IMG/VR virus record: IMGVR_UViG_3300033066_002392
Coordinates: 5,121 to 69,120 of that record
Strand: one strand, 5' to 3'
DNA: 64,000 nucleotides
From: a virus
Lineage: Duplodnaviria > Caudoviricetes
Made by a program: the position numbers and the translations under genes
Notes under the pieces: model-generated
Told to the model about the DNA's origin: nothing
What the model saw: only the letters and a program-made list of their open reading frames with translations
Databases searched by the model: none
Shown: piece by piece, positions 2,698 through 62,441 of the stretch
Numbering within the stretch: position 1 is the stretch's first letter
Layout of the letters: the number at the start of each line of letters is the position of its first letter

Positions 2698-5600
2698 GTG
2701 ACGACGGTGAAAGAATACTCGGCGGGCGACCTCTACGGGGCCGTCTCCCGCCGCTTCGACAGGCTCTCCGGCACCCTCGGCAACCCGCTCTCCGCCTCGA
2801 TGCGGAGGCTGGCGCTGCCCGCCGGGGACGGCCGCACCCTCACCCTCTCCAACCCCCCCGACGCGGGCACGGTGGACGTGGGCGACGGCCTGCTGGCCGT
2901 GGACGAAAAGACGATGTCGGCCGGCTTCGTGGTCTCCTCGACCCGGCGCGACCGCCACGGCGACGTGGTGGTGCCCGCGGGGTGCAAGGACTTCTTCGCC
3001 GACTACGAGGCCAACCCCGTCGTCTTCTTCGCCCACAAGAGCGACTGCCTCCCCATCGCCTCCGCCAGGGACGCCGCGGGCAAGGTGGCGATGTGGTTCT
3101 CCGAGGACAAGATAACCTCCCGCGCCTACTTCCACGGGAAGACGCGGGAGAGCGAGGAAGTCTTCTGCCTGGTGGCCGAGGGCCACCTGCGCGCGGCCAG
3201 CATCGGCTTCATCCCCGTCGAGGGGAAACTCATCCCCCCGGCGTCCGACGAGCCCGTCGACGACGACGGCAACGTCGACTTCGACTCCGGCGGCCTGGTG
3301 TTCACGAAGTGGCAGCTCCTGGAGTGGAGCGTCGTCCCCGTGCCCGCCAACGCCGACGCCCTGCGCTCCCGCCTGCAGTCGAGGAAAAGTCTTTCCCCCT
3401 CCCTCCGGAAGTCGCTGGAGCCCTTCGCGGCCCCCGCCCGCGGCGACCGCCCGCGGTTCACGATGCCCAAGCACGCGGGCCTGGCGGCGCAGGGGCGGCG
3501 CTGGAACCAGTCGCTGTCGAAGGCGTTCGACATCTCCCAGCAGAAGCTGAAGCCCGCCACGGCGTTCTACGGCCTGGCGTCGAAGTACCTCGGCTGCGAG
3601 GTGAAGCACATCTCCCACCGCTCCGCCGTCATCCCCTCTGCGAAGATGGGCTCCGTGCTCTCCGGCTGGCACGAGGCGGCCGCCCTGGACCACAAGTCGG
3701 TGGACGTCCGCAACATCACGCACGGCGGCACGGAGTGCCCGCCCTACTACGAGGCCATCCGGCTCAACTCCTCCCAGTCGAAGGAGTTCCTGGTGGAGGG
3801 CGCGGTCTTCTACGACGGCAAGTCGAAGTTCATCGCCGCCTTCCAGCCGGTGTGGTACGGACTCAGCGTCACCCTCTACTCGAAGCAGAGCGAGTCGGCC
3901 GACTCCTCCCTGGTGCTGGACAGGGCCTGGGAGCTGGCGGCGTCGAAGTACAACTTCCTCAAGGGCGAGGCCTTCTCCCTCTCCGGCGACTTCATCGGGA
4001 AGACCGGCGAGCAGTGGGAGGACCTGTTCCTCGAGGACAAGAACGTCAAGTCGGTTAAGCGCACCCTGCGGCTCCTCAACGAGAAGCAGGCGGACTTCGC
4101 CAACCGCGGCGCCATCTTCCTCGGGCCGCCCGGCACCGGCAAGACGCTCTCCGGGCGCATCATCCGCAACCAGGCCGACGCCACCTTCATCTGGGTCTCG
4201 GCCAAGGACTTCTACCGCGCCGGCGCCTTCGGCGGCATGTCGTACGCCTTCGAGCTCGCCAAGGAGCTGTCGCCCAGCGTCATCTTCTTCGAGGACGTCG
4301 ACAACTGGCTGGACAGCCACAGCGTGGACCTCCTCAAGAGCGAGATGGACGGCATCGCCCGCTACTCCGGCGTGTGGACGGTGCTCACCACAAACTACCC
4401 CGAGCGGCTGCCCAAGGCGCTCATCGACCGCCCCGGCCGCTTCCACGACGTCCTCTACTTCAAGCTGCCCGACGAGGCGGCCCGCAAGGGCATGCTCGCC
4501 AGGTGGCTGCCGGAGCTGAAGGGCCAGCCCCTCGCCGACGCCCTCAAGGCCACCAAGGGCTACAGCGGCGCCCACGTCTACGAGCTGTGCAAGTTCGTCA
4601 AGACGCTGCTGGAGCAGGAGGAGAAGTCCCTCGAGGCCGCGGTCACCTCCGCACTCAAGAAGATCGAGGAGCAGCGGGAGCTGATCGCCAGGCCGCCGCG
4701 CTTCGACAAGTCCCTCAGCCCCATGGTGGCCTCCTACGCGGGCCGCCGCAGTTTCAACATCCAACGGAAATCCATGCCCACCGACATAGGCGAAGCCCTC
4801 GAAAAACTCCTCGCCGACGACCTCACGAAGCCCCCCGTCCAGGACGCGGAAGACGCCGGGGGGAGTGAAGAGGGTGAGGGCGGCGTCGAGCCGCAGGCGA
4901 TCGTCTTCCACACCGACCGCTTCCACGAGGAGGCCGACGTCCGCCGGTGGCTGGAGGACAACGGCTACCCGGACGCCGAGGTGATGCCCGGCGGCGAGGG
5001 CGACGAGCCCTGGGTGGCCGTGCTGTTCCCGAGCGAGGAGTGCGAGGCCGACACCGCCGAGCGCAAGGAAATCGAGGACGGCGTCGAACTGGTGACCTGC
5101 ACCCGCGGCGAGAAGGAAGGCGACGGCGAGAGCGAACCCGAACCCGAATCCGGCGTGCCCGACGCCGGGGGAGAAGTGATGGCCGGCAAGGCGATGGACG
5201 AACTGCCCGATGGCGAGACCGCCGTGAAGCCAGGTGGGGAGTCCGACGACTCCATGAAGCCCTACGGCTGCCAGGTGCTGTGCACCCTGCAGGGGCACCT
5301 CGAGGCGACCGCTTCTTACCTCGAGTCGGCCGTCGGCCAGCTGGAGCAGGAGAAGGTCAAAAAGTGGCTCGGCAAGTACACCGAGCACCTGCAGAAGTAC
5401 GCCGACGACCTCGAGGAGTTCGCCTGCGGCGTCTACCCGGACCACTTCAAGGCGAAGGCCAAGAAGAAGAAGCCCGCCAAGGAGGAGCACCCCGAGCCCG
5501 ACGGCGACGAGGCCGTCGGCGACGGCGACGGGGACGCCGACGACAAGGGCAAGGGCAAGAAGTCAATCACCTCCCCCCGGCGTACCCCCCTCGCCAAGGG

Positions 5601-7587: not shown

Positions 7588-7627
7588 TTGCCACGCACCC
7601 TCCAATTCGGTATGATACTATAGTATC
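7588..7627 (+). promoter_or_regulatory. Sigma70-type promoter TTGCCA-17-TATGAT overlapped by the palindrome GATACTATAGTATC
   Basis: -35 at 7588-7593, -10 at 7611-7616, palindrome at 7614-7627; AT-rich; directly upstream of the HNH gene. Confidence 0.65.
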
Positions 7628-7636
7628 TTATTCAAC

Positions 7637-30279: not shown

Positions 30280-31050
30280 TCAGTAACTCGGCCTGTACCT
30301 ACAAGCACTCCTGGCGATCTCCCTCACCTTGTCGTCCGCCAGCGGCGGGTCGCAGCGCTCGTTGAACACGAACAGGCACCTCTCCACCTCCCCCGGCGTC
30401 CCCCCGTACCTCCGCAGCGAGCAGCCCAGGCTGAAGAGCCTGCGCTTCCTGCCGTCCGTGATGGGCGCCCCCTCCCCCACGCCGGGGAACTTCTGGCTCA
30501 CCGACACCGCCCGCGACAGCGCCAGCGGCAGCGGGCGGGGGGCGCCGCCCCTGCGGTAGGAGAGCCAGCGGTACGGCCTCCCCGAGGCGTGCACCGACGG
30601 CGGCACCACCGTCTGCCTGCCCCCCGACAGCAGCTCCGCGCCGCCGGGCAGCAGGCCGGAGCGCACCACCTCGTCGGCTGGGTAGCTGAAGAGGAGGCGC
30701 ACGCCGCGCCCCGTCTGGAAGCTGAGGACGCCGGGGGGGATGTCCCCGCCGAGGAGGCACTCGACGGCCGCGTAGGAGCCCTCGTCGTCGCAGTCGACGC
30801 CCACCAGGTTGCTCACCGGGCCCAGCACGACGCCCAGGTTGGCGTTGGGGTGCCGGTCGAACTCCCACCGCAGCCGGGACTCCGACTGCACCTCCGAGTG
30901 CAGGTGCTCCCAGCGGTAGAGGGGCGCCTTGCCCGGCTTGCGGCAGGACTCGCGGTGCCGGGCTGGGACGCCGGAGTGGGAGGGGGGGCACAGGGTGACG
31001 GGGTTCCACCCGCGGGCGAGGTACTCCTCCCCGGCGTCCAGGCAACTCAT
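30280..31050 (-). CDS. Bifunctional DNA primase/polymerase (Prim-Pol, AEP) with PriCT-like C-terminus, no helicase
   Basis: YLARGWNPV, GKAP, NANLGV, VGVDCD, QTGRG, VVPPSVHASGRPYRW, NERCDPPL. Confidence 0.85.
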   Translation of the reverse strand: MSCLDAGEEYLARGWNPVTLCPPSHSGVPARHRESCRKPGKAPLYRWEHLHSEVQSESRLRWEFDRHPNANLGVVLGPVSNLVGVDCDDEGSYAAVECLLGGDIPPGVLSFQTGRGVRLLFSYPADEVVRSGLLPGGAELLSGGRQTVVPPSVHASGRPYRWLSYRRGGAPRPLPLALSRAVSVSQKFPGVGEGAPITDGRKRRLFSLGCSLRRYGGTPGEVERCLFVFNERCDPPLADDKVREIARSACRYRPSY

Positions 31051-32258
31051 CTCAGTCCCATTCCTTCCCCCTGAACTTGCGTAGTATGTCAACCATCTCA
31101 GCGGTATCCTCGGAGCCCTCTCTGTCGACGACGAGTATCTCACCGCCGTTGTCCAGGTTGACCGTCCTGTGTAGTACCAACTCTTCGTGCGCCTCGAGGA
31201 TGCGTCTGGCTGCCAGGTACTCCGGACTACACAGGCTCGATTTGCCCTGGCGCATCCACTCCAGGTAGAGTGTCCAGAAGTTTCTTATCACTGCTAATCT
31301 CTCGTCCCGCCTGGCTTCCGATTCCATCACTTCACCTTCCTTACCCTCGGCTTCTTCTCTTTCTTCTCCCCCGGCGTCTTCTTCGCCTTCGCCTCCCGCT
31401 CCCCCGCCAGCAGCCCCTCCAGCCGCTCCACCTCGGCGGCGACGCGGTCCACGTCGCGGTCGCAGTAGTGGTGCCCCGCCTGGAAGCTGAGCAGCCGGTG
31501 GGCGAGGTAGCGGTGCCTGCCGCCGTCGTAGCCGGCCAGCGGCAGGGCGTCGCACAGCAGCGCGTCCTCCAGCCGGATCTCGAAGTACACGTGCTCCCGG
31601 CCGACGTACACCACCGTGCCGCCGCCCGCCTCAACCGATTCCCTCGCCGACTTGCCCCGGCCCGGCACCAGGTGCCGGCTCTTCGAGGAGAGGTTCGGCA
31701 TCCACTGCTCCGCCGCCGTCGTCATCGCCCGCTTCGCCACCCTCGGCCCCCAGTAGTTTGAGAACGGCCGCCGCCAGCCTCGTGGGCAGCGAGCGGCCGT
31801 AGTTCCTCGCCAGCACCTGGGTCGCCAGGCTCCTGGCTTCATCCCCCGGCGTGGTCATCGATCAACCTCATCAAGTCCTCGACGCAGCCCGTCTTGCCGA
31901 CGAGCGCCTTCAGCCGGTGGAAGTCGTCCCCGGTGTACCACACCACCTTGTAGGAGAGGTGAATCTTCTCCAGGTGGAACCCCTTGTACGCCGCACTGCC
32001 CCGGGCCTCAATTTCGGACCTCAGCCCGGAGGCCGTCTGGGGGCCCTGGCGTGCCCCGGGAGGCGCCGCGTTCGCCGGGGCGCCCACGGGGTGGGCGAGG
32101 GGCGGCGGCGCCGTCTGGACGACCTGGAGGCGAATGCTGGTGCCCCCCGACGAGGGCGCGTCCACCGGCTGGTAGCTAAACAGCTTCGCCACCTCGTCCT
32201 CACTGAGAGTGAACTTGAGGATGAGCGGCGTCGACTTCTCTATCTCCATTGATACCCC

Positions 32259-34784: not shown

Positions 34785-35202
34785 CTCGACTTCCCCTTTC
34801 GTCGGTGAGACGCATCATCATCGGGCGTTCACTTCTTCCGGCGCAGCAGCCGCTCCCCGTACTCGTGGACGTAGGCCCCCCAGTGGTCGGCCGCGGCCAG
34901 GATGAATTTCTCCACCACCAGGTATTTGGCGCTCAGTGCCGCCGGCGCCAGGGGCTCGGCGGGCAGGCAGGCCAGGTACACCTCGTCGCCGGGGGAGGCG
35001 TCGGCCCAGAGGACCCGCTCGTACCCCTCCGGCGGCTCCAGCAGCGCCAGGTCGATCATAGTATAGCTACCCCTAAGACGGGCGATTTCGCACATCTTAA
35101 CACATGATATCCAGGGTGACAAGGCCCCAGAGAATTCAGACTTCGCCCTTGTTTCCGCGCGCGCGGGGCGGTAGAAATGCAGCGTTGCGGGTGTTCACCA
35201 GA

Positions 35203-35248
<46 letters not shown>

Positions 35249-35340
35249 GACGGAAGTGGAACACCTGCAAGGATTTACGCCCTCGGCTCCCCCGCGCTGG
35301 GGGAGGCACCGGGGGCGGCCACCCTGCAGGAGTGCAGAGA

Positions 35341-36399
35341 ATGCCCCACTTCCCGAAGCCGTTCTGGCGCAGCAACCCGGCCGGCTGGTGCGTCGAAATC
35401 GGCGGCAAGCAGAAGGGCCTGGGCACCGACTGGCCGAAGGCGCTGGCCGAGTACGCCCAACTTCTGGCCCGCGACACGGCGGGACTCGCCGAATCTTCCG
35501 GCACTGAACGGGCGCCCACGGGTTGTCCCCAAAACGTCCCCAAAGTGAGCCTGGCCGACGCCGTCGACTCCTTCCTCGCGGACTGCGCCGCCCGCCTACG
35601 CCCCGGCACCGTGCAGTGGTACCGCGAGCGGCTGGGCTGGATGGCCGCCGCCGTGGGGAGGGACACCCCCCTGGAGTCGCTCACCGCTTCGGCCGTGTCG
35701 CGCTGGGCGATGGACCCGAAAAAAGACTGGAGCCCGGCCTACCGCCACGGCCTGCTGACGGCGGCGGGGCGGCTGACGTCCTGGGCCGCCCGCCACGAGG
35801 TGGTGCCCCGCGACAACCTGGCCGGCAAAATCAGCAAGCCCTCCCCGGTGCCAAGGAGCCGGATCCTCTCCGAGGCCGACTACCGCAAGCTGCTCGGCAT
35901 CTACCCCGCCGGCGACACCTTCCTGGATTTGCTCACCCTGTGCTGGGAGACGGGCTGCCGGCCGCAGGAGGCGCTGCGCTTCGAGGTGTGCCACTACCAG
36001 GCTGCGGCGAGGAGACTGAGCCTGCCGTCGCGCCAGGCGAAGGGCGGGGTGCGGGCGCGGCACGTCTACCTGAGTGACGCCGCCGAGGGCGTCGTGTCGC
36101 GGCTCGTGGCGGGCAAGGGGGCGGGGGTGCTACTGCTCAACGAGGACGGGGTGCCCTGGAAGCGGCACGCGGTGGCGTGCCGGTTCGGCCGGGCCGCCGG
36201 GGTGCTGGGCGTGAAGTACCGGCTCTACGACCTGCGGCACTCCTTCGCCCACCGCATGCTGGCGGCGGGGGTGCCGGCCGCCTCGGTGGCCCAGCTGATG
36301 GGGCACGTCGACACCCAGATGGTGCTCCGGGTGTACGGCCACCTGGAGGCGGCGGACGAGTTCCTGCGGAGCGAGTTACGCCGGGGGAAGGCCGGTTGA
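35341..36399 (+). CDS. int: Tyrosine integrase/recombinase
   Basis: TGCRPQE, YDLRHSF, LMGH..VYGH catalytic motifs; N-terminus MPHFPKPFWR..WCVEIGGKQ. Confidence 0.93.
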   Translation: MPHFPKPFWRSNPAGWCVEIGGKQKGLGTDWPKALAEYAQLLARDTAGLAESSGTERAPTGCPQNVPKVSLADAVDSFLADCAARLRPGTVQWYRERLGWMAAAVGRDTPLESLTASAVSRWAMDPKKDWSPAYRHGLLTAAGRLTSWAARHEVVPRDNLAGKISKPSPVPRSRILSEADYRKLLGIYPAGDTFLDLLTLCWETGCRPQEALRFEVCHYQAAARRLSLPSRQAKGGVRARHVYLSDAAEGVVSRLVAGKGAGVLLLNEDGVPWKRHAVACRFGRAAGVLGVKYRLYDLRHSFAHRMLAAGVPAASVAQLMGHVDTQMVLRVYGHLEAADEFLRSELRRGKAG

Positions 36400-44333: not shown

Positions 44334-44372
44334 AATATGATAGTATGTTATCCTATCTTATACCCGAGTCAA
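44334..44372 (-). promoter_or_regulatory. Operator-like imperfect palindrome overlapping a leftward promoter
   Basis: ATATGATAGTAT-GTT-ATCCTATCTTAT (44335-44361) resembles the 50521 palindrome; TTGACT on the minus strand at 44372-44367. Confidence 0.6.
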
Positions 44373-47486: not shown

Positions 47487-47861
47487 TCAATCGACTCGCG
47501 ACCCTCTCTCGTCTCCACCCGGCACCTCCGTCGTCGTGTGTCTGGTTACCGTCGACGCCTCCTGCCCGGTCTTCATTTCTCCCCCGGCGTCCACCCCGAG
47601 GAGCTTGGCCATGCTCCTGGCATGCTTACAGCGGTTCCAGCTCGCGAAGCCCACACAACTGCAGGTGAGCGGCGCCCCGTCGCCGTCCTGCCGCACGATG
47701 TAAGGCTTCTCCCTCGCCTCGCCTCCCACCTTCCTCAGCCGCCACGCCCTGCACCGGCCGGTGGGTGGGAGGGGGACGAGGCTGTAGGTGACGGAGGTGC
47801 CGCCCTTCCTCACCGTCAGCTCAACCCGGAAGGTGTCCTGCGTCGCCACTACTGTATTCAT
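47487..47861 (-). CDS. SWIM zinc-finger protein
   Basis: CSCVGF...CKH. Confidence 0.7.
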   Translation of the reverse strand: MNTVVATQDTFRVELTVRKGGTSVTYSLVPLPPTGRCRAWRLRKVGGEAREKPYIVRQDGDGAPLTCSCVGFASWNRCKHARSMAKLLGVDAGGEMKTGQEASTVTRHTTTEVPGGDERGSRVD

Positions 47862-47884
47862 AGTATACTATCCTATGTGCGGTT

Positions 47885-49638
47885 TCAAGTGTAGATGCCC
47901 ATCCGCCTGGAAAACTCCACGGCGTCTTTCGAGAGCTCCAGCCACTCGACGATTTTCCCGGGCGACCGCCAGTACCAGACCGTTCTGGTGCAGTGCTCCA
48001 GTGCGACTCCCCCTTCGTACTCGCCACCTGGGCGTTCGACGTTACTCACCTGCCAGGTGTCGCCCGTCTTGAACTTTAGCAACAGCCTGATTCGCTCTAC
48101 GGTCTCCTCGAACGTCATCCCCTGCCGCCCTTTCACTTGTGCATGAACCCGGTGAACTCCGCGGCATCCTTCGCCTCCTCGACTTGCCGGAGGAGTTTTT
48201 CCAGGCGATACGCGTGCTGGCACGTGCGCCCGCCGAACCGGTGAGCCACCGACACCAGTCTTCCGTACTTGCGGGTGCAGGTGATACCAACGACCCACCA
48301 CTCCCCGCCAGTTTTGAATTTCAGGAGGAGCTTGATGTGATCCACGGCCTCGTCGAACGTCATTAACTGCCCTCTGCGCACTTCGTCAGTGCAGCTATCT
48401 TCTGCACCGTGTCGTGGATGATGAGGAGGATGTCGATGTCGTGTCTGTCGTGGCAACCCTCCAGCAGTCCCAGTAAGACGCCGGGGGAAGAGAATGTGCA
48501 GGGCGGCTGGCACGGCCCGTTCGGGACCGTCACCCTCCCCTCGGCGTCCACCTCGGCCGTGTACTCCTTGCACCCCTTCATCAGCAGGTGGAGGCGGATG
48601 CTCTCTAGAGCGTCACTCACTTCCGTATCTCCCCGGAGTGGATGGCGTCGTGCACCACCCTGCGGGAGGTGTACCCCGGCAGCCGCTCCAGGAACGTCCT
48701 GGCGTTGACGGCGTGGCCGCACCCGTCCTTCAGCACGACGACACACTGGTGGGGCCTGCACATCTCGTACTTGCTGGTCGCCTCCACGCCCACCAGGTCG
48801 CCGAACTTCATCCTCAGAATAACCTTGATGCAGTCGACCACTTCCTCGTAGCTCACGACAGTCCCCCTCCCAGGCCGCCCTCGATCACCGCGTCCGCCTC
48901 CCGCCCCGTGGCGCACTTCCGGAGTTCGCCCAGAAGTTTCTCCAGGTCGTAGAACTCCTCGTACTCGCCCACCAGGATGACGACGACGCTGGTGCACACC
49001 TTGTCCGTCACGACCCCGTCGGGCCCGGACTCCCACTCGTAGGCGTCCGACACCGCGTAACGCGACCCCAGGCGCCGCAGAATCTCCTCCACAGCCTCGC
49101 GCATAGCTTCCCCCACCTCGTAAGCGGCCCGTGCGGCCTCCAGTCGCCGTAGCAGGCCAGTGTCAGCGTGACGTAGTCCACCGACTTCAACTGCTCGATG
49201 CGGTCCAGTAATTCCTCGGCGTCGTAGCGGATGACGCACACCTCGGTGACGATGCGGACCTTGCTACCGTTGTCGGGGTCCTGGTGAATCCCGAAGTCCT
49301 TGCCGCACTTCATCACCAGGTGCAACCGGATGCTCTCCAGCTTCTCGTTCAACCGCCCCTCCCCCTGCTTTTCACACCTTCCAGCCACTCGGGTCTCGCC
49401 CGGTTGCCAGCATGTAGATGACATCCCCCAGGTTGTCACACCTTTCCAGGTACGTCAGTAAGACGCCGGGGGAGAATCCGACCGTCGGCCGCAGAAGCCT
49501 CCGGTCGCCGGCCGCGTCGATGAAGGGGATGTGGACCACCACCCTGCCGTCTTCGGCCTCCTCGATCTCGTGCCACCGACACCCCTTCATTACCAGGTGG
49601 AGTCTGATGGACTCGAGTAGCCCCTCCCCGTCCGTCAT
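47885..49638 (-). CDS. Paralog array C: seven small proteins of 76-114 aa (47885-48118, 48133-48363, 48363-48620, 48617-48856, 48853-49104, 49008-49352, 49372-49638)
   Basis: Shared N-terminal helix E.(L/V)(E/D).I(R/K)L.L.(M/F)K and C-terminal ..LL..(L/I/V)E...D helix; variable middles. Confidence 0.75.
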
Positions 49639-50235
49639 TCATCCGCCTCCCTTCCGGGCGTTGAGCCTGCCGAACCTCGCCTCGCGCAGCGCCTCCTCTA
49701 CCCGGGCCTCCGTGGAGTACAGCCGCCTGGCGATTTCGGGCGCCGTCTTACCCTTGCCGGCCAGATACACCGCCGTCCCCGCCTCGCCCTCGCTCAGCCG
49801 CCGCTCCTCGGGGCGCGCCGGCTCGCTCACCGCCGTCACCCCCCGCTTCCTCACGTAGCCCTTCGTCGGGCGGTACTCCAGGTTGCCCAGGGCGCAGTTG
49901 CGCCGGTCGCCGTCCTTGTAACGCACCAGTGCGCAGGAGGGGTGCGGCGGGGGCAGGAAGGCCGCCAGCACCAGCTTCGCCAGCGGGAGCGCCCTGCGGA
50001 CGCCGCCCACCCTCGCGAAGGTGTACCGTATCGTCCCGCCGGTGGTGTGGGTGGCCACCGTCTTGTGGGGTTCACCCTTCTTGTCTTTCCACAAGAGGCC
50101 GTCCTCCCAGACCCAGTAGCCCGGGAGGCAGCGGAAGCGGCGAAACTCCTTGTTGCCGCGACGTAAAGTATCTGCTGGGCCGGACTTGAATTCGGCGTGC
50201 ACCGCCTGTAGTACGGACGACACGTTGCAAATCAT
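49639..50235 (-). CDS. Second degenerate HNH-like protein with C-terminal HTH
   Basis: LAKLVLAAF..VRYKDGDRRNCALGNLEY has Tyr where His is expected; TAPEIARRLYSTEARV. Confidence 0.65.
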   Translation of the reverse strand: MICNVSSVLQAVHAEFKSGPADTLRRGNKEFRRFRCLPGYWVWEDGLLWKDKKGEPHKTVATHTTGGTIRYTFARVGGVRRALPLAKLVLAAFLPPPHPSCALVRYKDGDRRNCALGNLEYRPTKGYVRKRGVTAVSEPARPEERRLSEGEAGTAVYLAGKGKTAPEIARRLYSTEARVEEALREARFGRLNARKGGG

Positions 50236-50273
50236 CGTAAGCCCTTTCCCGCCATCACCTTGATTGAGGTTGG

Positions 50274-50671
50274 ATTTCCAAGGACACCCGGTTCTGCTCT
50301 CGTAAAGCGACTGACAATTCCACAACTACTGCCTGGTTCTTCACTTGCGCCTGCATGTCACGAAGTCCGACTGTCACGAGGGGTTAGTAAGGGGTGGCCA
50401 GGGGAAACAAAAGATATTAAATTCTTACTACATCCCTCCCCCTGTCACTCCCTTATATAGGTATATATAGAGGGGGTAACATCACACTCCCATTCTAGGC
50501 CCGCTCCTCCCCCGGCGTCAATAGGATAGTATCCTATACTATCCTATTTTCTAGACTCTACCCCGTGGTGACAGTCGGACTTCGTGACATGCAGGCGGAT
50601 GTGCAGGTAGGGAATGGCTTTGCGGAATTGTCAGTCGCTTCCCAAGGGCAAGTCGCCGTGTCCTTGGAAAT
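50274..50671. repeat. Long colinear inverted repeat: 104-bp arms around a 190-bp spacer
   Basis: Perfect blocks 50274-50287/50658-50671 (14 bp), 50305-50321/50624-50640 (17 bp) and 50348-50377/50568-50597 (30 bp), all on one axis. Confidence 0.93.
50492..50548 (-). promoter_or_regulatory. Leftward sigma70-type promoter TTGACG-18-TAGAAT abutting a perfect operator-like palindrome
   Basis: -35 at 50521-50516, -10 at 50497-50492; AATAGGATAGTAT-CCT-ATACTATCCTATT at 50520-50548. Confidence 0.7.
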
Positions 50672-50700
50672 GTAATTTCCCTGGATTTTTCGGGAACCCC

Positions 50701-51285
50701 TTACATGCCAAGGACTTCCTCCCAGAAGTCGCTGTGGCACTGCATGAGGGCCTCCAGCTCCCCCGGCGTGGCCCGCAGGGTGACGACCGCCAGGCGCTGG
50801 TGGGAGGGGAAGTAGTCGGAGTAGGAGACGTAGTGCAGCCGCGTCGAGCCGCAGACGGCCATCAGGTGGTGGCACTGCGGGACGTAGTAGGCGGGCACCC
50901 GGCCGGCGAGGGCCTCCTGGTGCGACTGCTTGTTGGGGCACTTGATTTCGATCGGGAGGTTGATGTACTCGACGTAGCCGTCGAACGACGCCCGCACGAA
51001 GGGGAGAGCCTCGTGCTCGGCGCAGCAGTCCTCGGGGTCGAAGCCCGTGAAGTCCCGGTAGGCCTGGGCCACCAGGGGCTCGAGGCGCCTGCCTCGCGCC
51101 ATGGCGAAGCTGTCGAACGATTTGGGCTGGCCGCCGTGGAGTGCGTTGTACTTCTCCTGTAGGAGCTGGAAGCGGGTTGTCCACGGTGACAGCCCCACCA
51201 CCGCGGCGGCGTCACTGCCGCCGATCCCCTGCGAGCGCCAGGCGAGCCACTCGGGGCTGCGCTGCGCCAGGGTCACCTTCTTCAT
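50701..51285 (-). CDS. YqaJ/lambda-exonuclease-like recombination nuclease
   Basis: QRSPEWLAWR..GIGGSD, ASFDG, EIKCP, YYVPQC. Confidence 0.9.
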   Translation of the reverse strand: MKKVTLAQRSPEWLAWRSQGIGGSDAAAVVGLSPWTTRFQLLQEKYNALHGGQPKSFDSFAMARGRRLEPLVAQAYRDFTGFDPEDCCAEHEALPFVRASFDGYVEYINLPIEIKCPNKQSHQEALAGRVPAYYVPQCHHLMAVCGSTRLHYVSYSDYFPSHQRLAVVTLRATPGELEALMQCHSDFWEEVLGM

Positions 51286-51291
51286 GCGATA

Positions 51292-51648
51292 CTACCTCTT
51301 GCTGGCCGCCGCCTTCCCCGGCGTCATCGCCGCCTTGAGCCTCTCGTCGGAGGCCCGCAGCTCCTCGATCAACGGGCCGAGGTGCCGGCGGAGAACGTTC
51401 GATACGACCTGCTCGGCCGTCATCCCGCTCAGGGTGCAGGCTAATTCTACCGCGGAGGCCAGGTCCCCGCTAAGCCCCACCGCCGCCCCGCCGCCGCCGT
51501 CGGCCGCGTCCTTGAGCACCCGGCGCACCGTGTCCGAGATGCCACTCTCCCCGGCGTCCTTCTGCATCTGCCTCAGTCTCGCGTCCACCGACTCGGGCAC
51601 CAGCACGGAGTAGCGGATCAGGGCCTCCTTGTTTCGCTGCCTTCCCAC
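51292..51648 (-). CDS. Ribbon-helix-helix-like regulator; candidate repressor
   Basis: RYSVLVPESVDARLRQM..ISDTVRRVL; located at the divergent transcription junction. Confidence 0.5.
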   Translation of the reverse strand: MGRQRNKEALIRYSVLVPESVDARLRQMQKDAGESGISDTVRRVLKDAADGGGGAAVGLSGDLASAVELACTLSGMTAEQVVSNVLRRHLGPLIEELRASDERLKAAMTPGKAAASKR

Positions 51649-51675
51649 TTTCTCACCTCGTCTCTGATTTTCCAC

Positions 51676-51687
51676 AATAGTACTATT
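51676..51687. promoter_or_regulatory. Palindrome AATAGTACTATT in the divergent promoter region
   Basis: Perfect 12-bp palindrome; GTACTATT recurs at 51764-51771. Confidence 0.55.
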
Positions 51688-51857
51688 CTTGCGTACACTA
51701 GAGCGCGGTATACTCCTTTCATCCACCGCCCCGCACATCGCGGCCCGGCCGTCCCCGCGCTACGTACTATTGTATACCGCGTATCACGAAGGTGAAAGGC
51801 TGATTCCACGTCTTTCATGACCATTCCCAGCGGCGGAATTCGGGTTATGATGGGGAT

Positions 51858-52148
51858 GTGGAGGGAAATCGTATGCGAGATGACGCTGGGTTCTTCGTGC
51901 CGGACGAGGTCGTCGACGCGATCCCGCACATCACCCTTCCGGGCCTTCACCTCTACCTGCTGCTCGGGCGCTCCAGGACGCTGGGGGGTTACCCCACGCT
52001 GGACTCCCTCGCGCGGGAGATGGGGAAGAAGAAGGTCGACGTTTGGAAGTTTGTCGGGCTGCTCTACGAGCGGAAATTCATCAACGATGCTGACGTGGAG
52101 CAGCTCATGGAGGCGGCGGAAACGGACGACGAGGGGGTTGACTCATGA
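51858..52148 (+). CDS. Small winged-helix protein resembling a replication initiator N-terminus
   Basis: LHLYLLL..YPTLDSLAREMG..VWKFVGLLYERKFI. Confidence 0.6.
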   Translation: MEGNRMRDDAGFFVPDEVVDAIPHITLPGLHLYLLLGRSRTLGGYPTLDSLAREMGKKKVDVWKFVGLLYERKFINDADVEQLMEAAETDDEGVDS

Positions 52149-54233: not shown

Positions 54234-56663
54234 ATGGTTGACCTGTCCTCCCTTCCGGCGTACGCCGCGGCGTCGCTGCGCGCACTCGGCCCCGTCGCCA
54301 CGGAGCGCGACGGCTGGCTGTGCCACTGCCCCAACCCCCGCCACGGGGGCGACTCCCACCCCAGCCTGCGGGTCACCGTGGGCGACTCCGGGCGCCTGCT
54401 AGTCCTCTGCCGCTCCGGCTGCCCCACCGGCGAAGTGCTCCAGGCCGCGGGCCTCACTTACCGCGACCTGCACTGCCCCGCCGGCGAGACGCCGCTGGAG
54501 CCCCTGGCGATGGAGGCCAGCGAACTTACCCAGGCCGACGCCGAGCTCCGCGACGAGGTCTACCGCTCCCTCCTCGGCGTCCTGAAGCTGGGCGGCGAGC
54601 ACCTGAAGTCGCTGCTGGCCCGGGGCCTCGACGCCCAGGCCGTCTCCGCCAACCAGTACCGCACGCTGGACCGCGCCGCCAAGGCGTCGGCGCCCAAGAA
54701 GCTCTTCCGGGAGTACGGCGACTCCCTCTTCGGCGTCCCGGGCTTCCGGCCCTCCGGCGGCGGGGCCTCCTTCTCCACCGGCGTGGAGGGCATCGTCATC
54801 CCCTGCCGCAGCCGCGAGGGCCTGATAGTCGCCCTCAAGGTGCGGCGCGACGACAAGGGCGAGGGCCCTCGCTACGTCTACCTCAGCGGCACCCAGGAAG
54901 GGGAAGTCTCCTCCGGCACGCACCTGCACCACCCGGTCCCTCCCCCCGGCGTCCTCCACGGCGACTACGTCCTGGTGACCGAGGGTGAACTGAAGGCCGA
55001 CGTCACCCAGCACCTCACGGGGCGGCAGTGCGTTTCCGTCCCCGGCGTCTCCCTGTGGCGCAAGGCCGTGGACGAGCTGGCCGACATCGCCGATGCCAGG
55101 GCCCGCACCGTCGTCGCCTTCGACTGGCCCGACGTGGTGAAGAACTACGCCGTCTTCAGTGCCGCCAGGGACTTCATTCGCGGCCTGCGGGACGTGGGCG
55201 TCAACGCCTCGCTCCTCACCTGGGACGAGAAGCTGGGCAAGGGCGTCGACGACATGTACGCCGGCGGCGGCGTTCCCGTCACCGTCTCGGGCGAGGACCT
55301 GACGCGGAAGCTGGACGCCCTGGAGCAGGCCCACAACCACGTGCCCATGCCCGTGGCGACGGCGAGCCTGGTGAGCGGCGAGGCGGGGTGGAAGCCCGCG
55401 CCCTTCCCCACCTGGGTGTTCCCGCCGAAGGTGGCGGCCTTCGTCAAGGAGGTGTCCACCAGCAAGAGCTGCCCGGCCGACTTCCCGGGCACCGCCTGCC
55501 TCAACGTCGCCGCCAGCGCCGTCGGCACGACTCGCGCCATCCGCATGAAGAGCGACTGGGTGGAGCGACCCTGCCTCTACTCCATCATCGTGGCCGAGGC
55601 GGGCAGCAGGAAGTCTCCCGCCCTGAAGGCGGTGCTGGCCCCCGTCTACCGCCACCAGGGCCTCATCTACTCGCGGGACGAGAAGTCCTCCGAGACGGTG
55701 TACGTCAACGACTCCACCCTGGAGGCGCTGGGCGCGGTCCTGGAGAAGAACCCCCGCGGCGTCCTGCAGTTCCGCGACGAGGCGGCGGGCTTCTTCCTCG
55801 ACTTCAACAAGTACCGCGGCGGCAAGGGCGGCGACCGGCAGGCGTACCTCACCTTCTGGAGCTGCGAGCCCTGGAAAATTAACCGCAAGAGCGGCGACCC
55901 CATCCACATCCCCATGCCCTACGTCTCCATCCTCGGCGGCATTCAGCCGGCCCTGCTGTCGGAGATGGAGGACAGGAGTGGGCGCGAGGACGGCTTCATC
56001 CACCGCTTCGACTTCTCGATGCCCGAGGCGCAGACGTACCCGGGCTGGGACGAGTCCTTCGTGAGCGAGTCGGCGATGGCCGACTGGTCGGAGGCGGTCA
56101 CCCACCTCTACACCCTCAAGCACCGCGAGGAGCAGGTGGGCGACGGCAAGACGATGGCCCACAGCCACGTCCTCAACCTCAGCCCGGCGGCGAAGCGGCT
56201 CTACGTCGACTGGTACAACGCCCACCAGGACGAGATCCGCAACCTCGTCGACCTCAAGCTGAAGGGGCCGTGGGCCAAGATGGAGGCCAAGTGCGCCCGC
56301 TACGCCCTGGTGCTGCGGCTCCTCTGGACTGAGGACCCCGACGGCCTGGAGGAGGTGCAGGCGGGCGACGTGGAGCGGGCGATCGCGCTGGTGGACTACT
56401 ACAAGAGCCACTCCCGCGGCGTCTACTCTCGGCTGAAAAACACCGCCGAGGACGACCACGTCGTGCGCCTGCTGCAGCTGGTGGCCGCCAGCCCCGGCCA
56501 GTCGGTGACGGTGCGCGAGGCGATGCGCGGCCTGAAGCTGCACACGAAGACGGCAACGTCGGCCGTCTTCAAGCGGGCGGCCGACCTGGGCAAGGGGAGC
56601 GTCGCCCGGCTCAGCTACCCCAACAACCGCTCGGCCGAGGTGTTCACCACGAGGGAGGATTGA
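54234..56663 (+). CDS. Primase-helicase: Zn-finger + Toprim (DUF3854-like) + DUF3987/YfjI-like NTPase
   Basis: CHCPNPRHGGDSHPSL..CRSGC; VTEGELKAD; VVAFD; AEAGSRKS; DSTLEAL..RDEAAG. Confidence 0.8.
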   Translation: MVDLSSLPAYAAASLRALGPVATERDGWLCHCPNPRHGGDSHPSLRVTVGDSGRLLVLCRSGCPTGEVLQAAGLTYRDLHCPAGETPLEPLAMEASELTQADAELRDEVYRSLLGVLKLGGEHLKSLLARGLDAQAVSANQYRTLDRAAKASAPKKLFREYGDSLFGVPGFRPSGGGASFSTGVEGIVIPCRSREGLIVALKVRRDDKGEGPRYVYLSGTQEGEVSSGTHLHHPVPPPGVLHGDYVLVTEGELKADVTQHLTGRQCVSVPGVSLWRKAVDELADIADARARTVVAFDWPDVVKNYAVFSAARDFIRGLRDVGVNASLLTWDEKLGKGVDDMYAGGGVPVTVSGEDLTRKLDALEQAHNHVPMPVATASLVSGEAGWKPAPFPTWVFPPKVAAFVKEVSTSKSCPADFPGTACLNVAASAVGTTRAIRMKSDWVERPCLYSIIVAEAGSRKSPALKAVLAPVYRHQGLIYSRDEKSSETVYVNDSTLEALGAVLEKNPRGVLQFRDEAAGFFLDFNKYRGGKGGDRQAYLTFWSCEPWKINRKSGDPIHIPMPYVSILGGIQPALLSEMEDRSGREDGFIHRFDFSMPEAQTYPGWDESFVSESAMADWSEAVTHLYTLKHREEQVGDGKTMAHSHVLNLSPAAKRLYVDWYNAHQDEIRNLVDLKLKGPWAKMEAKCARYALVLRLLWTEDPDGLEEVQAGDVERAIALVDYYKSHSRGVYSRLKNTAEDDHVVRLLQLVAASPGQSVTVREAMRGLKLHTKTATSAVFKRAADLGKGSVARLSYPNNRSAEVFTTRED

Positions 56664-59483: not shown

Positions 59484-62441
59484 TTGACACCGATCGACCA
59501 GTCGCCCAGGGCGCGGGCAGTTGACATCCGGACGTACTGCCGGCCGCTGGACGCGGAGGGCTCGTCGTTCGAGACCCGCGACCAGATGCTCCGGCGCTCC
59601 ATGCTGGAGCACCACCGCCGCCTGCTGCGGGACGCCGGCAAGAAGAACCACAAGGACGAGCTCAACGAGTTCTACTCCCTCGGCGTCGAGGGCAAGGCGG
59701 CCGTGTCGGGGCGCACGCAGTGGCTGGGCGGCACGCCCTACGCCTACGACCGCGCGGCGTGCCAGTTCAACTGCAGCGCCACCATGGCCGCGACGGTCTA
59801 CGACATCGTCGACATCTCCTGGCTGCTGCTCAACGGCTGTGGCGTCGGCTTCAAGCCGGTCGTCGGCACCCTGCACGGCTACACCAGGCCGATCAACGAA
59901 CTCGAGATCGTCCCCAGCCGCAACGACAAGAACTTCCGAGGGCGCGAGCAGAACGAGGAGGAGTTGCCCTGCGAGGCCAACGACCACACCTGGACAATCC
60001 GGGTGGGCGACTCCGCCGCGGCCTGGGCCAAGGCCGGCGGGAAGATGTTTTCGCCCCGCCACGCGAAGAAGCTCCGGCTGGACTTCGGCAACGTGCGAGG
60101 CGCGGGTGGAAGACTTAAAGGATATGGCTGGGTCGCCAATGGCTATGCACCCTTCGCCAAGGCCCTGGTGGCCATCCACAACATCCTGAACGAGTCCGCC
60201 GGCAACCTGCTGGACGAGATCCAGATCATCGACGTGGTGAACTGGTGGGGCACCGTGCTCTCCTCCCGGCGCGCGGCCGAGATCGCGCTCCTGGATTTGC
60301 ACAACCCCCGGGCCGGCGAGTTCGCCCGGATGAAGCGGGAGTACTGGAAGCACAACCCCCAGCGCCGCCAGAGCAACAACACCCTGCTGGCGTGGACGAA
60401 GCCGTCTCGCGGCAGGCTCGAGGAGATCCTCCGCGAGGCCGACGAGTCCGGGGGCGACCCGGGGATCTGCAACGCCGAGGCCGCGCTGAAGAAGGCGCCC
60501 CACTTCGCGCTCTTCAACCCCTGCGTCCCCGGCTACACCCGCATCCTGACGGACAAGGGCTACGCCCGCATCGACTCGCTGGTCGGTTACCGGGTGAACG
60601 TGTGGAACGGCAAGTCGTTCGCGAGCGTGTGGCCCAAGGTGACGGGCTTCGACCAGCCGCTCGTGAAGGTGTCACTCTCCGATGGCACCTCGCTGACCTG
60701 CACCTACGCCCACAACTGGCTTGTGAACGACGGCACGTACCACAAGCCGACGGAGACCCGGAAGCAGGCGATCGAACTCCAGCCCGGTGACAGGCTGGCG
60801 AAGTATTCGATGCCGGTGGTTGAGGGCGGGGTGCCGTTCCAGCTGGCCTACACCCACGGCTTCTACTGCGGTGACGGCTTCGACTACGCGGAAGACAAGC
60901 GGGCCTGGCTCTACGGTGAGAAGACGAAGCTCGCCATGTACCTGGTCGGCGTGCACCGCTCCGACAGCGTCCCGGGCCGGACGCACGTGACCTTCCCGTC
61001 GGAGATGCCGGCGAAGTTCCACGTGCCCCACGACGCCGACCTCGCCTCGCGGCTGGACTGGTTCGCCGGGCTGCTGGACTCCGACGGCACCGTGGTGCAG
61101 AACCCCAACAGCGTCTCGCTCCAGGTCTCCAGCGTCCGGAAGGACTTCCTCGACGAGGTGCGGCTCATGCTCACCTCCCTCGGCGTCCAGGCCAAGATCG
61201 GCCTGATGTCGGAGGAGGGCGACAGGGAGATGCCCGACGGCCGGGGCGGCAAGAAGCTGTACCACTGCCAGACGAGCTACCGCCTTTGCGTCAACGCGGC
61301 GGATACCTGCCACCTGGTCGACCTCGGGCTCTCCCCCCGGCGTCTCGTGATCAACAAGAAGGCCCCCAACCGGGACGCCAGGCGGTTCGTCGAGGTGGTC
61401 TCCGTGGAGGAGGCTGGCGTCGCACCCTTCGTCTACTGCTTCACCGAGCCCCTCACCAACCGGGGGACCTTCGAGGGGATCGTCACGGGGCAGTGCGCGG
61501 AAATCCTCCTTCCGAGATCGGGGTTTTGCAATTTGGTTACACAGTGCCTCCCCAGGTTCCGGCGCAACTTCTCCGAGATGGAGCGGTCGTGCTACCTGAT
61601 GGCCAGGGCCAACTACCGCCAGACGTGCGTCAACCTCGAGGACGGTGTGCTACAGCCGGCCTGGCACCAGACGAACGAGTCGCTCCGCCTCTGCGGCGTC
61701 AGCGCCACGGGCATCGTCCAGGCCGACTGGCTCACCGACTACCAGATCCGCCGGCTCCGCAACGCGGCGGTGACGGGCGCCTACAGCATGGCTGACGAGC
61801 TCAAGATGCCCCGCCCCAAGGCCGTCACCACGGTGAAGCCCGAGGGCACCATCAGCAAGACGCTGGGCAGCCACTCGCTCGGCGAGATCGCGGAGGGCAT
61901 CCACAAGCCGCTGGGCCGGTTCATCCTGAACTGGGTGAACTTCGCTGCAGTCGACCCGCTGGTGGGCCTGCTGGAGTCGGCCGGCTACAAGACGCTGCCC
62001 AACCCCAGCGACAGCAACAACGTCCTGGTCTGCTTCCCGGTGGAGTACGACAACATCGCCTTCGACCGGGTCGACGGGAAGTACGTCAACCTCGAGCCGG
62101 CCACCGCCCAGCTGGATCGCTACCTGCGGTGGAACACGCTGTGGGCGGACCACAACGTCAGCTGCACGGTGAGCTACTCGCCGGAGGAGATACCCCAGGT
62201 CGTCGACTGGCTGGACAGGAACTGGGACTCGGGCTTCATCGCCGTCTCCTTCCTCCGGCGCAACGACCCGACGAAGACGGCCCGCGACCTGGGCCACCCC
62301 TACCTGCCGCAGGAGGTGGTGAACGAGGGCCCCTTCCGCGACTACCAGAACACGCTGCGGTCGGTGGACTGGTTGAAGGTGAGCGGCATCCACGAAATCA
62401 GCGAGGAGTCCTGCGCCACGGGGGTGTGCCCGTCGCGGTGA
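59484..62441 (+). CDS. nrdJ: Class II (adenosylcobalamin-dependent) ribonucleotide reductase containing an intein
   Basis: ACQFNC, GCGVGF, SRRAAEI, NP|CAEI, TTVKPEGT, HNVSCTV, C-terminal SCATGVCP. Confidence 0.9.
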   Translation: MTPIDQSPRARAVDIRTYCRPLDAEGSSFETRDQMLRRSMLEHHRRLLRDAGKKNHKDELNEFYSLGVEGKAAVSGRTQWLGGTPYAYDRAACQFNCSATMAATVYDIVDISWLLLNGCGVGFKPVVGTLHGYTRPINELEIVPSRNDKNFRGREQNEEELPCEANDHTWTIRVGDSAAAWAKAGGKMFSPRHAKKLRLDFGNVRGAGGRLKGYGWVANGYAPFAKALVAIHNILNESAGNLLDEIQIIDVVNWWGTVLSSRRAAEIALLDLHNPRAGEFARMKREYWKHNPQRRQSNNTLLAWTKPSRGRLEEILREADESGGDPGICNAEAALKKAPHFALFNPCVPGYTRILTDKGYARIDSLVGYRVNVWNGKSFASVWPKVTGFDQPLVKVSLSDGTSLTCTYAHNWLVNDGTYHKPTETRKQAIELQPGDRLAKYSMPVVEGGVPFQLAYTHGFYCGDGFDYAEDKRAWLYGEKTKLAMYLVGVHRSDSVPGRTHVTFPSEMPAKFHVPHDADLASRLDWFAGLLDSDGTVVQNPNSVSLQVSSVRKDFLDEVRLMLTSLGVQAKIGLMSEEGDREMPDGRGGKKLYHCQTSYRLCVNAADTCHLVDLGLSPRRLVINKKAPNRDARRFVEVVSVEEAGVAPFVYCFTEPLTNRGTFEGIVTGQCAEILLPRSGFCNLVTQCLPRFRRNFSEMERSCYLMARANYRQTCVNLEDGVLQPAWHQTNESLRLCGVSATGIVQADWLTDYQIRRLRNAAVTGAYSMADELKMPRPKAVTTVKPEGTISKTLGSHSLGEIAEGIHKPLGRFILNWVNFAAVDPLVGLLESAGYKTLPNPSDSNNVLVCFPVEYDNIAFDRVDGKYVNLEPATAQLDRYLRWNTLWADHNVSCTVSYSPEEIPQVVDWLDRNWDSGFIAVSFLRRNDPTKTARDLGHPYLPQEVVNEGPFRDYQNTLRSVDWLKVSGIHEISEESCATGVCPSR
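60522..61493 (+). mobile_element. Intein (324 aa) with LAGLIDADG-type endonuclease; C-terminal Gln
   Basis: Begins CVPGYTRILT; block B TCTYAHNW; FAGLLDSDG; block F VYCFTEP; ends TGQ followed by extein C of CAEI. Confidence 0.92.

Follow-up and report, generated by a model that had tools for sequence, protein, structure and literature searches.

We analysed a large inverted-repeat element in a 64-kb stretch of viral DNA (Duplodnaviria; Caudoviricetes), hereafter the window, which covers positions 5,121 to 69,120 of the 69-kb IMG/VR record IMGVR_UViG_3300033066_002392 (about 68% G+C). The element occupies positions 50274-50671, and its own stretch (50100-50900) was read and searched for repeats. 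It lies in a 465-bp gap between two co-directional leftward genes. A YqaJ/RecE-like exonuclease gene (50701-51285, minus strand; Pfam, 1.3e-29) lies upstream with respect to transcription, and the first gene downstream (49639-50235, minus strand) encodes an I-HmuI-like protein of 198 residues (phrog_959, 8.8e-11; Pfam HNH_3 below the cut-off), the start of which is the ATG at 50235 and not the TTG at 50325. The promoter-upstream arm of the element (50558-50671, the right arm in window coordinates) comes directly after the YqaJ stop codon, while the promoter-downstream arm (50274-50387, the left one) falls within the 5' leader of the transcript predicted to start at an internal promoter. The two arms share three perfect block pairs of 14 bp (50274-50287 and 50658-50671), 17 bp (50305-50321 and 50624-50640) and 30 bp (50348-50377 and 50568-50597). 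Gaps of 17 and 26 nt separate the blocks; they are non-complementary and have the same length in both arms, so that an ungapped fold-back alignment runs through the whole structure on a single axis at 50472.5. The two 30-bp blocks are 190 bp apart. The hexamer TGTCAC is found at 50356, 50372 and 50443 on the plus strand and at 50568 and 50584 on the minus strand, that is, twice per arm and once in the spacer, the two minus-strand copies in the 30-bp block of the upstream arm being 16 nt apart. Window-wide the hexamer is not enriched (20 copies found, 26 expected). An original prediction, made by reading the letters only, had described these three blocks with equal gaps on one axis, the same count of TGTCAC, and a 190-bp spacer with an AT-rich tract, a leftward promoter, a genome motif and a perfect palindrome. 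The fold-back alignment reproduced the blocks, gaps and axis exactly, the list of positions bears out the count, and everything ascribed to the spacer could be located.

The 465-nt intergenic region folds on the transcribed strand with -220 kcal/mol, compared with -145 +/- 6 for shuffled sequences (z = -11.8), and the opposite strand folds equally well (z = -12.0). Since the block structure, the promoter match, the palindrome and the folding score were all confirmed, the element is non-random, far beyond chance.

Relatives were found through homologues of the exonuclease on contigs from independent samples, and one more, L015, through a profile search with the downstream protein; locus scans with single proteins (the exonuclease, the primase-helicase and the RecT-like protein) gave no useful relatives. 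The exonuclease is 83% identical to that of the window in L007, 74% in L008 and 76% in L009-L013, the last being five samples with identical sequence in the element region. In all close relatives the gap between the exonuclease gene and the orthologue of the 198-residue protein gene measures 453-481 nt, and each has its own large inverted repeat there. In other words, the same architecture is present at the same position in five phage lineages (the window, L007, L008, L009 and L015), all from independent assemblies, with arms of 100-145 nt, perfect inner blocks of 24-31 bp and spacers of about 167-208 bp. Between phages the arms are 36-51% identical and the core between them 52-62%, compared with 100% for TGTCACC, which in the direction of transcription stands at the inner end of the upstream arm and is mirrored in the downstream arm. 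No arm sequence other than this TGTCAC-type iteron is conserved throughout the clade. Conservation of the blocks in relatives, for which the original prediction suggested looking, is accordingly one of architecture in five lineages but not of sequence, as the arms differ between phages.

These comparisons bear directly on whether the element is a stray or foreign structure. Having arms and a short core, it is superficially similar to a miniature inverted-repeat transposable element (MITE). However, a MITE is ruled out: the arms match nothing but each other in the 69-kb record, so the element is single-copy; in viral and prokaryotic genome collections the 22-nt inner block is nowhere matched exactly; conservation is found in the core and variation in the arms, the reverse of what a MITE shows; and no target-site duplication is seen in the flanks. 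A 13-mer of the inner block, with up to three mismatches, was not enriched in the window either, and a search of a phage collection with 1.7 kb around the element returned nothing but an unrelated match of 53 nt. In its three nested repeat pairs the element is reminiscent of the tos/telRL site of N15-type phages, and a resolution or telomere-like site was among the functions originally suggested for the element. That suggestion is rejected because there is no dyad at the symmetry axis: position 50472.5 falls in ...TATATAGAGGGG..., and the nearest quasi-palindrome is about 10 nt off-axis. An assembly artefact is excluded by the fact that five independent assemblies with different sequences have the same design. 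Overall, we regard the chance that the element is MITE-like, a protelomerase or resolution site, or an artefact as negligible. Absence from relatives, a match to a MITE and an assembly artefact were also the three ways in which the prediction was said to be able to fail; each was looked into and none applies.

The core can be followed along the direction of transcription, starting with the promoter. A sigma-70-type promoter-like site, TTGACG-18-TAGAAT (50492-50521, minus strand), is directed at the I-HmuI-like gene and is the best of four such sites found, where shuffled sequences yield 0.3. Promoters with the same 18-nt spacing are predicted at the equivalent position in L007 (TTGACC-18-TATGAT) and L009 (TTGACG-18-TATACT), and the -10 columns T-A-n-n-n-T are invariant in alignment A1. 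The genome motif CTCCTCCCCCGGCGT is present in one copy inside the promoter spacer, at about 50504-50518. Also between -35 and -10, the motif YTCCCC(C)GGCGT, as its reverse complement ACGCCGGGG(G)AG, is seen in the window, in L009 (about 3446-3458) and in L015, and is missing from the promoter spacers of L007 and L008. The -35 hexamer is overlapped by a perfect 13-3-13 palindrome (about 50520-50548). Its half-site ATAGGATAGTAT, with up to two mismatches allowed, has 13 matches at four places in the window against 0.14 expected. The resulting ATAGTATACTAT-type palindromes (alignment A6) are at about 7615-7631, 44335-44361, 47860-47876 and 50521-50547; a -35-like hexamer adjoins three of the four, none being seen at the 47.9-kb site, and by sequence the family looks like the operator set of one phage regulator. 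Of the four sites only that at 50.5 kb carries arms, and the promoter and operator therefore seem to be a unit generic for the phage, with the arms as an added layer. The relatives' own palindromes show no detectable dispersal, though their loci are short.

Downstream of the promoter come the predicted start region (GTGTGATG) and a hairpin in the 5' leader (50445-50488, minus strand). In this hairpin five of 11 pairs have changed on both sides and 97.7% are paired (A1 columns 306-316 and 334-344), and a U.G pair is kept on the sense strand in all four sequences. Because of this covariation together with the preserved U.G pair, it does look like a real RNA leader structure. It is followed by a G-rich box, CAGGGGGAGG(G) (50434-50444, minus strand), nearly invariant in all relatives and directly upstream of an AT-rich tract of about 29 nt (50405-50433). 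The tract has more than 80% A+T in a genome of 68% G+C, is AT-rich in L007, L008, L009 and L015 too, and is a candidate unwinding element; the lowest-GC kilobase of the window (0.581) is the one that holds the element region. The last feature, the motif CGCAAGTGA(A/T)G (50339-50349, minus strand), lies in the 26-nt gap of the downstream arm (A1 columns 447-472). It is conserved in five phages (the k-mer CACTTG in 5/5) and merely has a partial mirror in the upstream arm, which makes it an asymmetric component of an otherwise symmetric design. Besides TGTCACC, the sequences conserved across A1 are thus the -35 and -10 positions, the start region GTGATG, the hairpin, the CAGGGGGAGG box, the AT-rich tract and the CGCAAGTGA(T)G motif. 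Two further observations concern this motif: its GTG opens a reading frame of 21-30 codons in the window, L007, L008 and L009, the peptides of which are unconserved, and GTGATG is common to the motif and to the predicted transcription start region.

The genes, called from third-position G+C, point to the right in the first 28.4 kb, to the left between 28.3 and 51.7 kb, and to the right once more from 51.86 kb. As the whole element sits inside the leftward block, its region is not a divergent one. The geometry of an internal promoter between inverted repeats nevertheless raises the question of an inverton, also put forward in the original prediction as an invertible switch. The inner repeats would then be crossover sites, and the 167-208-bp core would flip its promoter either toward the I-HmuI-like gene and a small-paralog array or against the YqaJ operon, a process that would keep the repeats identical. 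Like the element, known invertons (fimS, the Bacteroides capsule promoters, hin) have inverted repeats of 20-30 bp around a promoter segment of about 170-210 bp, so that repeat length, spacer length and internal promoter are all typical. A recombinase might use the conserved TGTCACC at the inner ends of the repeats as a half-site. The repeats are Watson-Crick-perfect and free in sequence between phages, as a crossover requiring homology would select, and the phage has both a tyrosine recombinase (35104-36399) and a RecT/YqaJ pair able to recombine 30-bp repeats. However, a single orientation is seen in five lineages and at least 11 independent contigs, although contigs drop minor variants, and a deep contig (depth 49) from sequencing run X1 is colinear with no joint, which as a contig-level result weighs little. 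Unlike these invertons, the element has no adjacent invertase: the tyrosine integrase at 35104-36399, the one site-specific recombinase recognised in the original prediction and the only recombinase among the open reading frames (ORFs) scanned, is 14 kb away. Flipping would also leave unexplained the extra outer blocks, the equal-length gaps and the asymmetric motif of the downstream arm. Although its geometry matches, we consider a switch very improbable. Three sequencing runs of one study contain the sequence, as assembled contigs, and no RNA run is listed with it. In a second run of the same study, X2, low-depth contigs end near the arm borders (50254, 50399 and 50680), which may be a coverage or assembly effect at the repeat.

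What distinguishes the arms most clearly is the way in which they have changed between phages. For the long-range helices and the leader hairpin of A1, 90.5% of the arm-to-arm cells are in standard pairs, compared with 36-44% for slid partners. Both members have changed in 42 of 66 pairs, compared with 9-15 in the slid-partner controls, and in 23 of 33 in the inner helix alone; none of 500 shuffles reached the observed pairing, and RNAalifold agrees. The search for covariation in relatives that had been proposed for this element therefore gave a clear positive result (42/66, with 0/500 shuffles as high). Counted across the arm spans as aligned in the five phages, 328 positions are Watson-Crick, 24 G.U-type, 30 A.C-type and 87 of other kinds. 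Wobble pairs have no more than their chance share of the mismatches on both strands and are absent from the long perfect blocks. In each of the five phages a gap in one arm is as long as its counterpart in the other, apart from a single 1-nt offset in L009, and this equality fits a constraint on spacing rather than free internal loops. Because pairing is Watson-Crick-only, the gaps are equal in length and both strands fold equally well, the signature is a DNA-level one: judged by these alignments, the arms are two opposed copies of one duplex sequence, unlike a helix selected as RNA.

The rival view, a long RNA hairpin, deserves to be spelled out. In this case, transcripts reading through from YqaJ would carry both arms and form an imperfect duplex of about 100 bp, leading to an RNase III-type cut or to silencing and insulation of the downstream genes, whereas transcripts from the internal promoter would stay active. 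The promoter between the arms, the co-directional flanking genes and the lack of any predicted terminator in our scan of the window region, including after YqaJ, all fit, as do the very stable fold (z -11.8) and the massive covariation. There is also a precedent in the promoter-inside-hairpin translational control documented for T-even homing-endonuclease and other genes, namely T4 I-TevI, I-TevII, I-TevIII, segB, e, soc and Aeh1 mobE (PMC2988022). These systems resemble the element in having the promoter between the repeat halves, upstream of an endonuclease-type gene and in a polycistronic unit. On the other hand, the T4-type hairpins are short and sequester the ribosome-binding site, whereas here the arms are about 110 nt and the loop about 190 nt long, the ribosome-binding site is unmasked and there is no wobble signature (24 G.U against 30 A.C on the sense strand). 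Of 19 Shine-Dalgarno/start positions, 10-14 are paired in folds of the read-through transcript and 8-14 in folds of the promoter-initiated one, with 0-7 pairs to the upstream third; as these positions are paired about equally in both fold types, the folds speak against a translational mask of the T4 type. Neither the equally good fold of the antisense strand (z = -12.0) nor symmetric 17/26-nt 'internal loops' kept in every phage would be expected for an RNA helix. No Rfam 15 family was found; the only match, to MIR398, is at chance level (24.2 bits with a gathering score of 55, E 0.026). The long hairpin, another of the functions first suggested, is thus possible but not favoured, and we would call it rather unlikely as the main function. 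An RNase III-type processing site in the read-through RNA is possible.

A natural experiment on the arms is provided by two sister phages, L009 and L015, which over 6.7 kb are 97-100% identical in 60-nt windows with two strong exceptions; a milder diverged patch lies near L009 6113-6460. The first exception is the upstream arm (L009 3260-3366; 37-55% identity to L015) and the second comprises the downstream arm together with the first ~140 codons of the next gene (L009 3546-4135; 50-75%). The core between the arms (L009 3367-3545) is 88-97% identical and the 3' part of the gene about 98%. In the downstream protein, residues 1-145 have 75 of 144 positions identical and the remainder 51 of 53, so the replaced tract corresponds to the N-terminal two thirds of the protein and stops at a low-confidence linker between domains. 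Despite the replacement, the arms of L015 again form an inverted repeat about a single axis, with stretches of 76 nt (79%) and 33 nt (85%) that are complementary. The exchange thus took in two separate segments together; whatever their role, the two arms of a phage must match. A need for pairing would by itself force such joint replacement, so this observation is also compatible with the RNA hairpin.

The same comparison bears on a further alternative, that the palindrome matters only as a structure. The arms would be kept alike by gene conversion or template switching between inverted copies; without a dedicated sequence-specific binder, they might act by folding into a hairpin or cruciform in single-stranded intermediates of replication or recombination, or by marking a hotspot of modular exchange. 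Perfect Watson-Crick blocks, arms that are colinear nearly without indels and a sequence that is free between phages would all follow, and the element does lie at the border between a conserved module (YqaJ, 74-83%) and a fast-evolving one (the next protein, 37-39%). In T4-type phages, promoter-early stem-loop (PeSL) cassettes, short, multi-copy combinations of a hairpin repeat with an early promoter at the border of the hyperplastic region, reportedly mediate shuffling. The element is likewise a regulatory cassette of a hairpin-forming repeat and an early promoter at a module border, but it is single-copy, four to five times larger, and has its promoter inside rather than behind the repeat. 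Conversion would moreover erase the gaps, yet their position persists together with a motif conserved on one side, and it cannot have started the arm replacement in L015 because old and new arms share only about 10 nt. In duplex DNA, cruciform extrusion across a non-palindromic spacer of about 170-210 bp is energetically implausible. A purely structural role therefore appears improbable. The repeats of Cluster O mycobacteriophages, a dispersed 17-bp palindrome, are not comparable.

If the arms are recognition sequences, the protein encoded next to them is the obvious candidate reader. The 198-residue protein consists of a NUMOD4-like beta domain, a degenerate HNH_3 motif, a flexible linker and a C-terminal helix-turn-helix. 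Its AlphaFold2 model (mean predicted local distance difference test score, pLDDT, 85.8) starts with a beta domain at the N-terminus, followed by the degenerate core; a linker predicted with low confidence (residues 128-148) leads to three helices at the C-terminus. The best-matching PDB entry is 1U3E, the complex of I-HmuI with DNA (probability 1.0, E 2.9e-4, root-mean-square deviation 2.2 A over 88 columns). The model thus has the I-HmuI-type fold of beta domain, HNH core and C-terminal helix-turn-helix. In canonical relatives the sequence reads VHRLV...H.DGD..NN...NL...N..RHG, followed by the helix-turn-helix (alignment A5, 23 sequences). The five orthologues beside the element depart from this pattern: the VHRLV His is missing, the catalytic His position holds Y, P, H, F and F (a loss in four of five), NN is replaced by NC, and the distal N..RHG segment with its Asn and His is lost. 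The Pfam HNH_3 score of the window protein is 16.8 with a cut-off of 24.8. By alignment and model, the product of 49639-50235 is a catalytically degenerate I-HmuI-like HNH protein; the original prediction listed it among the proteins to try for binding, but without the HNH identification. It evolves fast, with 37-39% identity between phages compared with 74-83% for the neighbouring exonuclease, and its C-terminal helices are the best-conserved part of the five orthologues (alignment A2). The sporadic presence and absence expected of a mobile gene was not seen, as the gene has the same position in all five close lineages. A word-based homology search with the protein returned only itself. As a monomer stretched along the DNA, I-HmuI contacts about 25 bp in 1U3E, its beta domain and its helix-turn-helix lying at opposite ends; in the five phages the perfect inner blocks span 24-31 bp.

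A regulatory role for a homing-endonuclease-type protein would have a precedent, as I-TevI represses its own promoter (PMC2988022). The two systems are alike in that an extended modular binder of homing-endonuclease type is encoded behind a promoter with cognate-looking sites, and binding without cleavage is what we propose here. They differ in that I-TevI is a GIY-YIG protein and an active nuclease with a single operator that mimics its homing site, whereas in the present case the catalytic residues are lost, two inverted arrays flank the promoter and no homing site is known.

The association between arms and gene was followed through a wider set of loci. Self-BLAST of about 170 loci with a related exonuclease gene, screened for inverted repeats of 17 nt or more that are 100-600 nt apart, left only the close clade, L017 and L107, and an nhmmer profile of the core gave no output on distant loci. 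Long arms are present in 5/5 loci with the I-HmuI-like gene and in 0/4 related loci without it (L014, L016, L179 and L180). Upstream of canonical HNH_3 genes in other contigs there is no element of this kind. The short iteron has a different distribution. Motifs of the ACTGTCA type occur in both orientations in the equivalent gaps of distant relatives, with five copies in L017 (0.2 expected) and several in L014 and L016; from this persistence the short iteron would therefore be older than the long arms. Because the motif is also found in relatives without the I-HmuI-like gene, TGTCAC is probably read by another, conserved protein. One candidate reader is the product of the window gene 51292-51738, which has no Pfam match. 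The gene at that position, just upstream of the exonuclease gene, is of the ribbon-helix-helix (CopG-like) class in L014 (5606-5998) and L017 (532-894). The iteron of P4, which we take to be TGTTCACC, would be similar to TGTCACC but is not used as evidence here.

Based on these observations, we propose that the element is a DNA-level cis-acting control region and neither a mobile element nor primarily RNA. Its core would be made up of an early promoter, a palindromic operator, the 5' leader hairpin, the G-rich box and the AT-rich tract, and the two inverted arms would bracket this core as paired protein-recognition arrays. Each arm would combine a TGTCAC iteron at its inner end with a type-specific sequence that is obligatorily the same in both arms. 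The reader of the latter would most likely be the I-HmuI-like protein, whose gene comes first behind the promoter. By binding on both sides of the promoter and the AT tract, this protein would shut off the promoter of its own gene (autoregulation), and the same binding would insulate the promoter from read-through out of the YqaJ operon. In a fuller version, the bound protein would also mark the site of duplex opening for replication, and transcription from the internal promoter would run into the G-rich and AT-rich stretch. That paired type-specific arrays and a clade-wide TGTCAC iteron surround a promoter and AT core as an autoregulated early control region, possibly a replication origin, has in our estimate a little less than an even chance of being right. 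There is a substantial chance that the same complex marks a replication origin. The assignment of proteins to sites in this proposal is inferred, as is its output, which may be repression, origin firing or a combination of the two. The original prediction had already favoured protein-binding arrays, and the kept architecture, the gap symmetry, the absence of a wobble signature, the iteron and the L009/L015 swap speak for this part of it, whereas none of its four functional options (origin, switch, resolution or telomere-like site, RNA hairpin) is proven.

It is possible to go one step further. A domesticated, catalytically dead protein of I-HmuI type might recognise, in a type-specific way, a symmetric region that is both origin and early promoter. 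The arms, together with the variable N-terminal domain, would then form an exchangeable incompatibility or immunity cassette, swapped as a unit between otherwise identical phages. We put this forward as a speculation that is rather unlikely to be right. The fuller version of the control-region proposal has a parallel in phage lambda, where the variable N-terminal domain of O is matched to variable iteron sites and the C-terminal part is conserved; similarly, the type-specific sites of the element lie beside a variable protein domain with a conserved remainder.

Several observations weigh against the control-region proposal or parts of it. The coupling of arms and N-terminus rests on one sister pair, L009 and L015, and half of it is explained by hitch-hiking, since gene and downstream arm adjoin and could have been exchanged in a single recombination tract. 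Over ten phage pairs the similarity of arms and that of N-terminal domains are uncorrelated (r = -0.01), with values so near saturation that the comparison is uninformative, and the inner blocks of L015 and the window are alike though their proteins are no closer. The association of arms with the gene is confounded by phylogeny, as the five loci are one clade, and TGTCAC-type motifs are also found in relatives without the I-HmuI-like gene. The outer blocks contain no obvious repeat of the inner block, so one protein with one specificity cannot explain all blocks. For the origin version, the distance to the primase-helicase gene (3.5 kb) and the modest nature of the skew signal described below have to be added.

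The question of an origin was approached through layout, composition and comparison. An AT tract of about 29 nt between opposed TGTCAC sets corresponds to the layout of iteron-type origins. When GC skew is scanned over the 64-kb window for a single change point, the best one lies at 50,500 (t 3.76; 7/2000 permutations), and the shift is independent of gene orientation in the first 52 kb. However, mean skew changes merely from -0.084 before to -0.017 after this point, without a change of sign, and the resolution of about +/- 1.5 kb (49500-52000) includes the divergent promoter region at 51.75 kb. The origin option is thus weakly favoured by the AT tract, by the change point at 50.5 kb that came out of the GC-skew check suggested with it, and by a palindrome in L107 (see below), while the small shift without a sign change speaks against it. 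In phage-inducible chromosomal islands (PICIs), 'two sets of iterons' flank an AT-rich region at the origin (PMC6092414). The element shares with PICI and Staphylococcus aureus pathogenicity island (SaPI) origins, and with the lambda origin and O, an AT tract between iteron sets, a setting in a replication/recombination module and transcription into the region. It differs from them in that it is neither in nor beside a helicase or initiator gene, in that its arms are long near-exact inverted copies with 24-31-bp perfect blocks and not arrays of short iterons, and in that the candidate binder has a degenerate HNH fold and is not a winged-helix Rep or O; the element is, besides, known from sequence alone. 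A separate structure stands at 5286-5565 of L107 (IMGVR_UViG_3300033076_001250), a nested palindrome of TTTAGTGGAT iterons with 46-nt outer arms (100% complementary, 188-nt spacer) and inner arms of about 31 nt. It is directly 3' of a gene for a 768-residue Toprim and DUF3987 homologue of the window's primase-helicase, occupies the classical position of a PICI-type origin and looks like an origin of PICI/SaPI type. In the literature we found no equivalent of the element in the window and nothing relevant on the origins of planctomycete phages.

The replication and recombination genes of the phage lie mostly on the other side of the direction change. From 52.2 kb the other strand carries the RecT-like gene (1.5 kb from the element), the primase-helicase gene (54234-56663, plus strand; DUF3854 and DUF3987, Toprim-type) and a family-A DNA polymerase gene. 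No initiator or helicase gene adjoins the element, the neighbours being the YqaJ and I-HmuI-like genes and the primase-helicase gene being 3.5 kb away. The original prediction had the element beside the exonuclease, single-strand annealing protein and initiator-like genes; the exonuclease gene does adjoin it, but the RecT-like annealing protein and the primase-helicase are 1.5 and 3.5 kb off and encoded on the other strand. A protein with Prim-Pol and PriCT_1 domains is encoded in the leftward block (30280-31143, minus strand), so besides the Toprim-type primase-helicase (54234-56663) the phage has a second primase-type gene. Farther to the right, an ORF of 985 residues (59484-62441, plus strand) matches the insertion domain of B12-dependent ribonucleotide reductase and has a LAGLIDADG_3 domain at residues 526-599; it probably encodes an intein-containing class II reductase.

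Should the arms form a cognate pair with the N-terminal domain of the I-HmuI-like protein, a homing-endonuclease scaffold would have been recruited as a regulator or as an origin-recognition protein. This would be a new pairing of initiator and origin, or of repressor and operator, built from the fold of a selfish nuclease, and its specificity module would be exchanged between sister phages, as two proteins with two arm types. The approach itself may be of wider use, since a wobble census, the symmetry of gap lengths and mosaics of sister phages can separate DNA-level from RNA-level inverted repeats in phage genomes. For uncultured high-GC phages of this group, on which there is no prior experimental knowledge, the element would also be the first candidate for an origin or an early control region.

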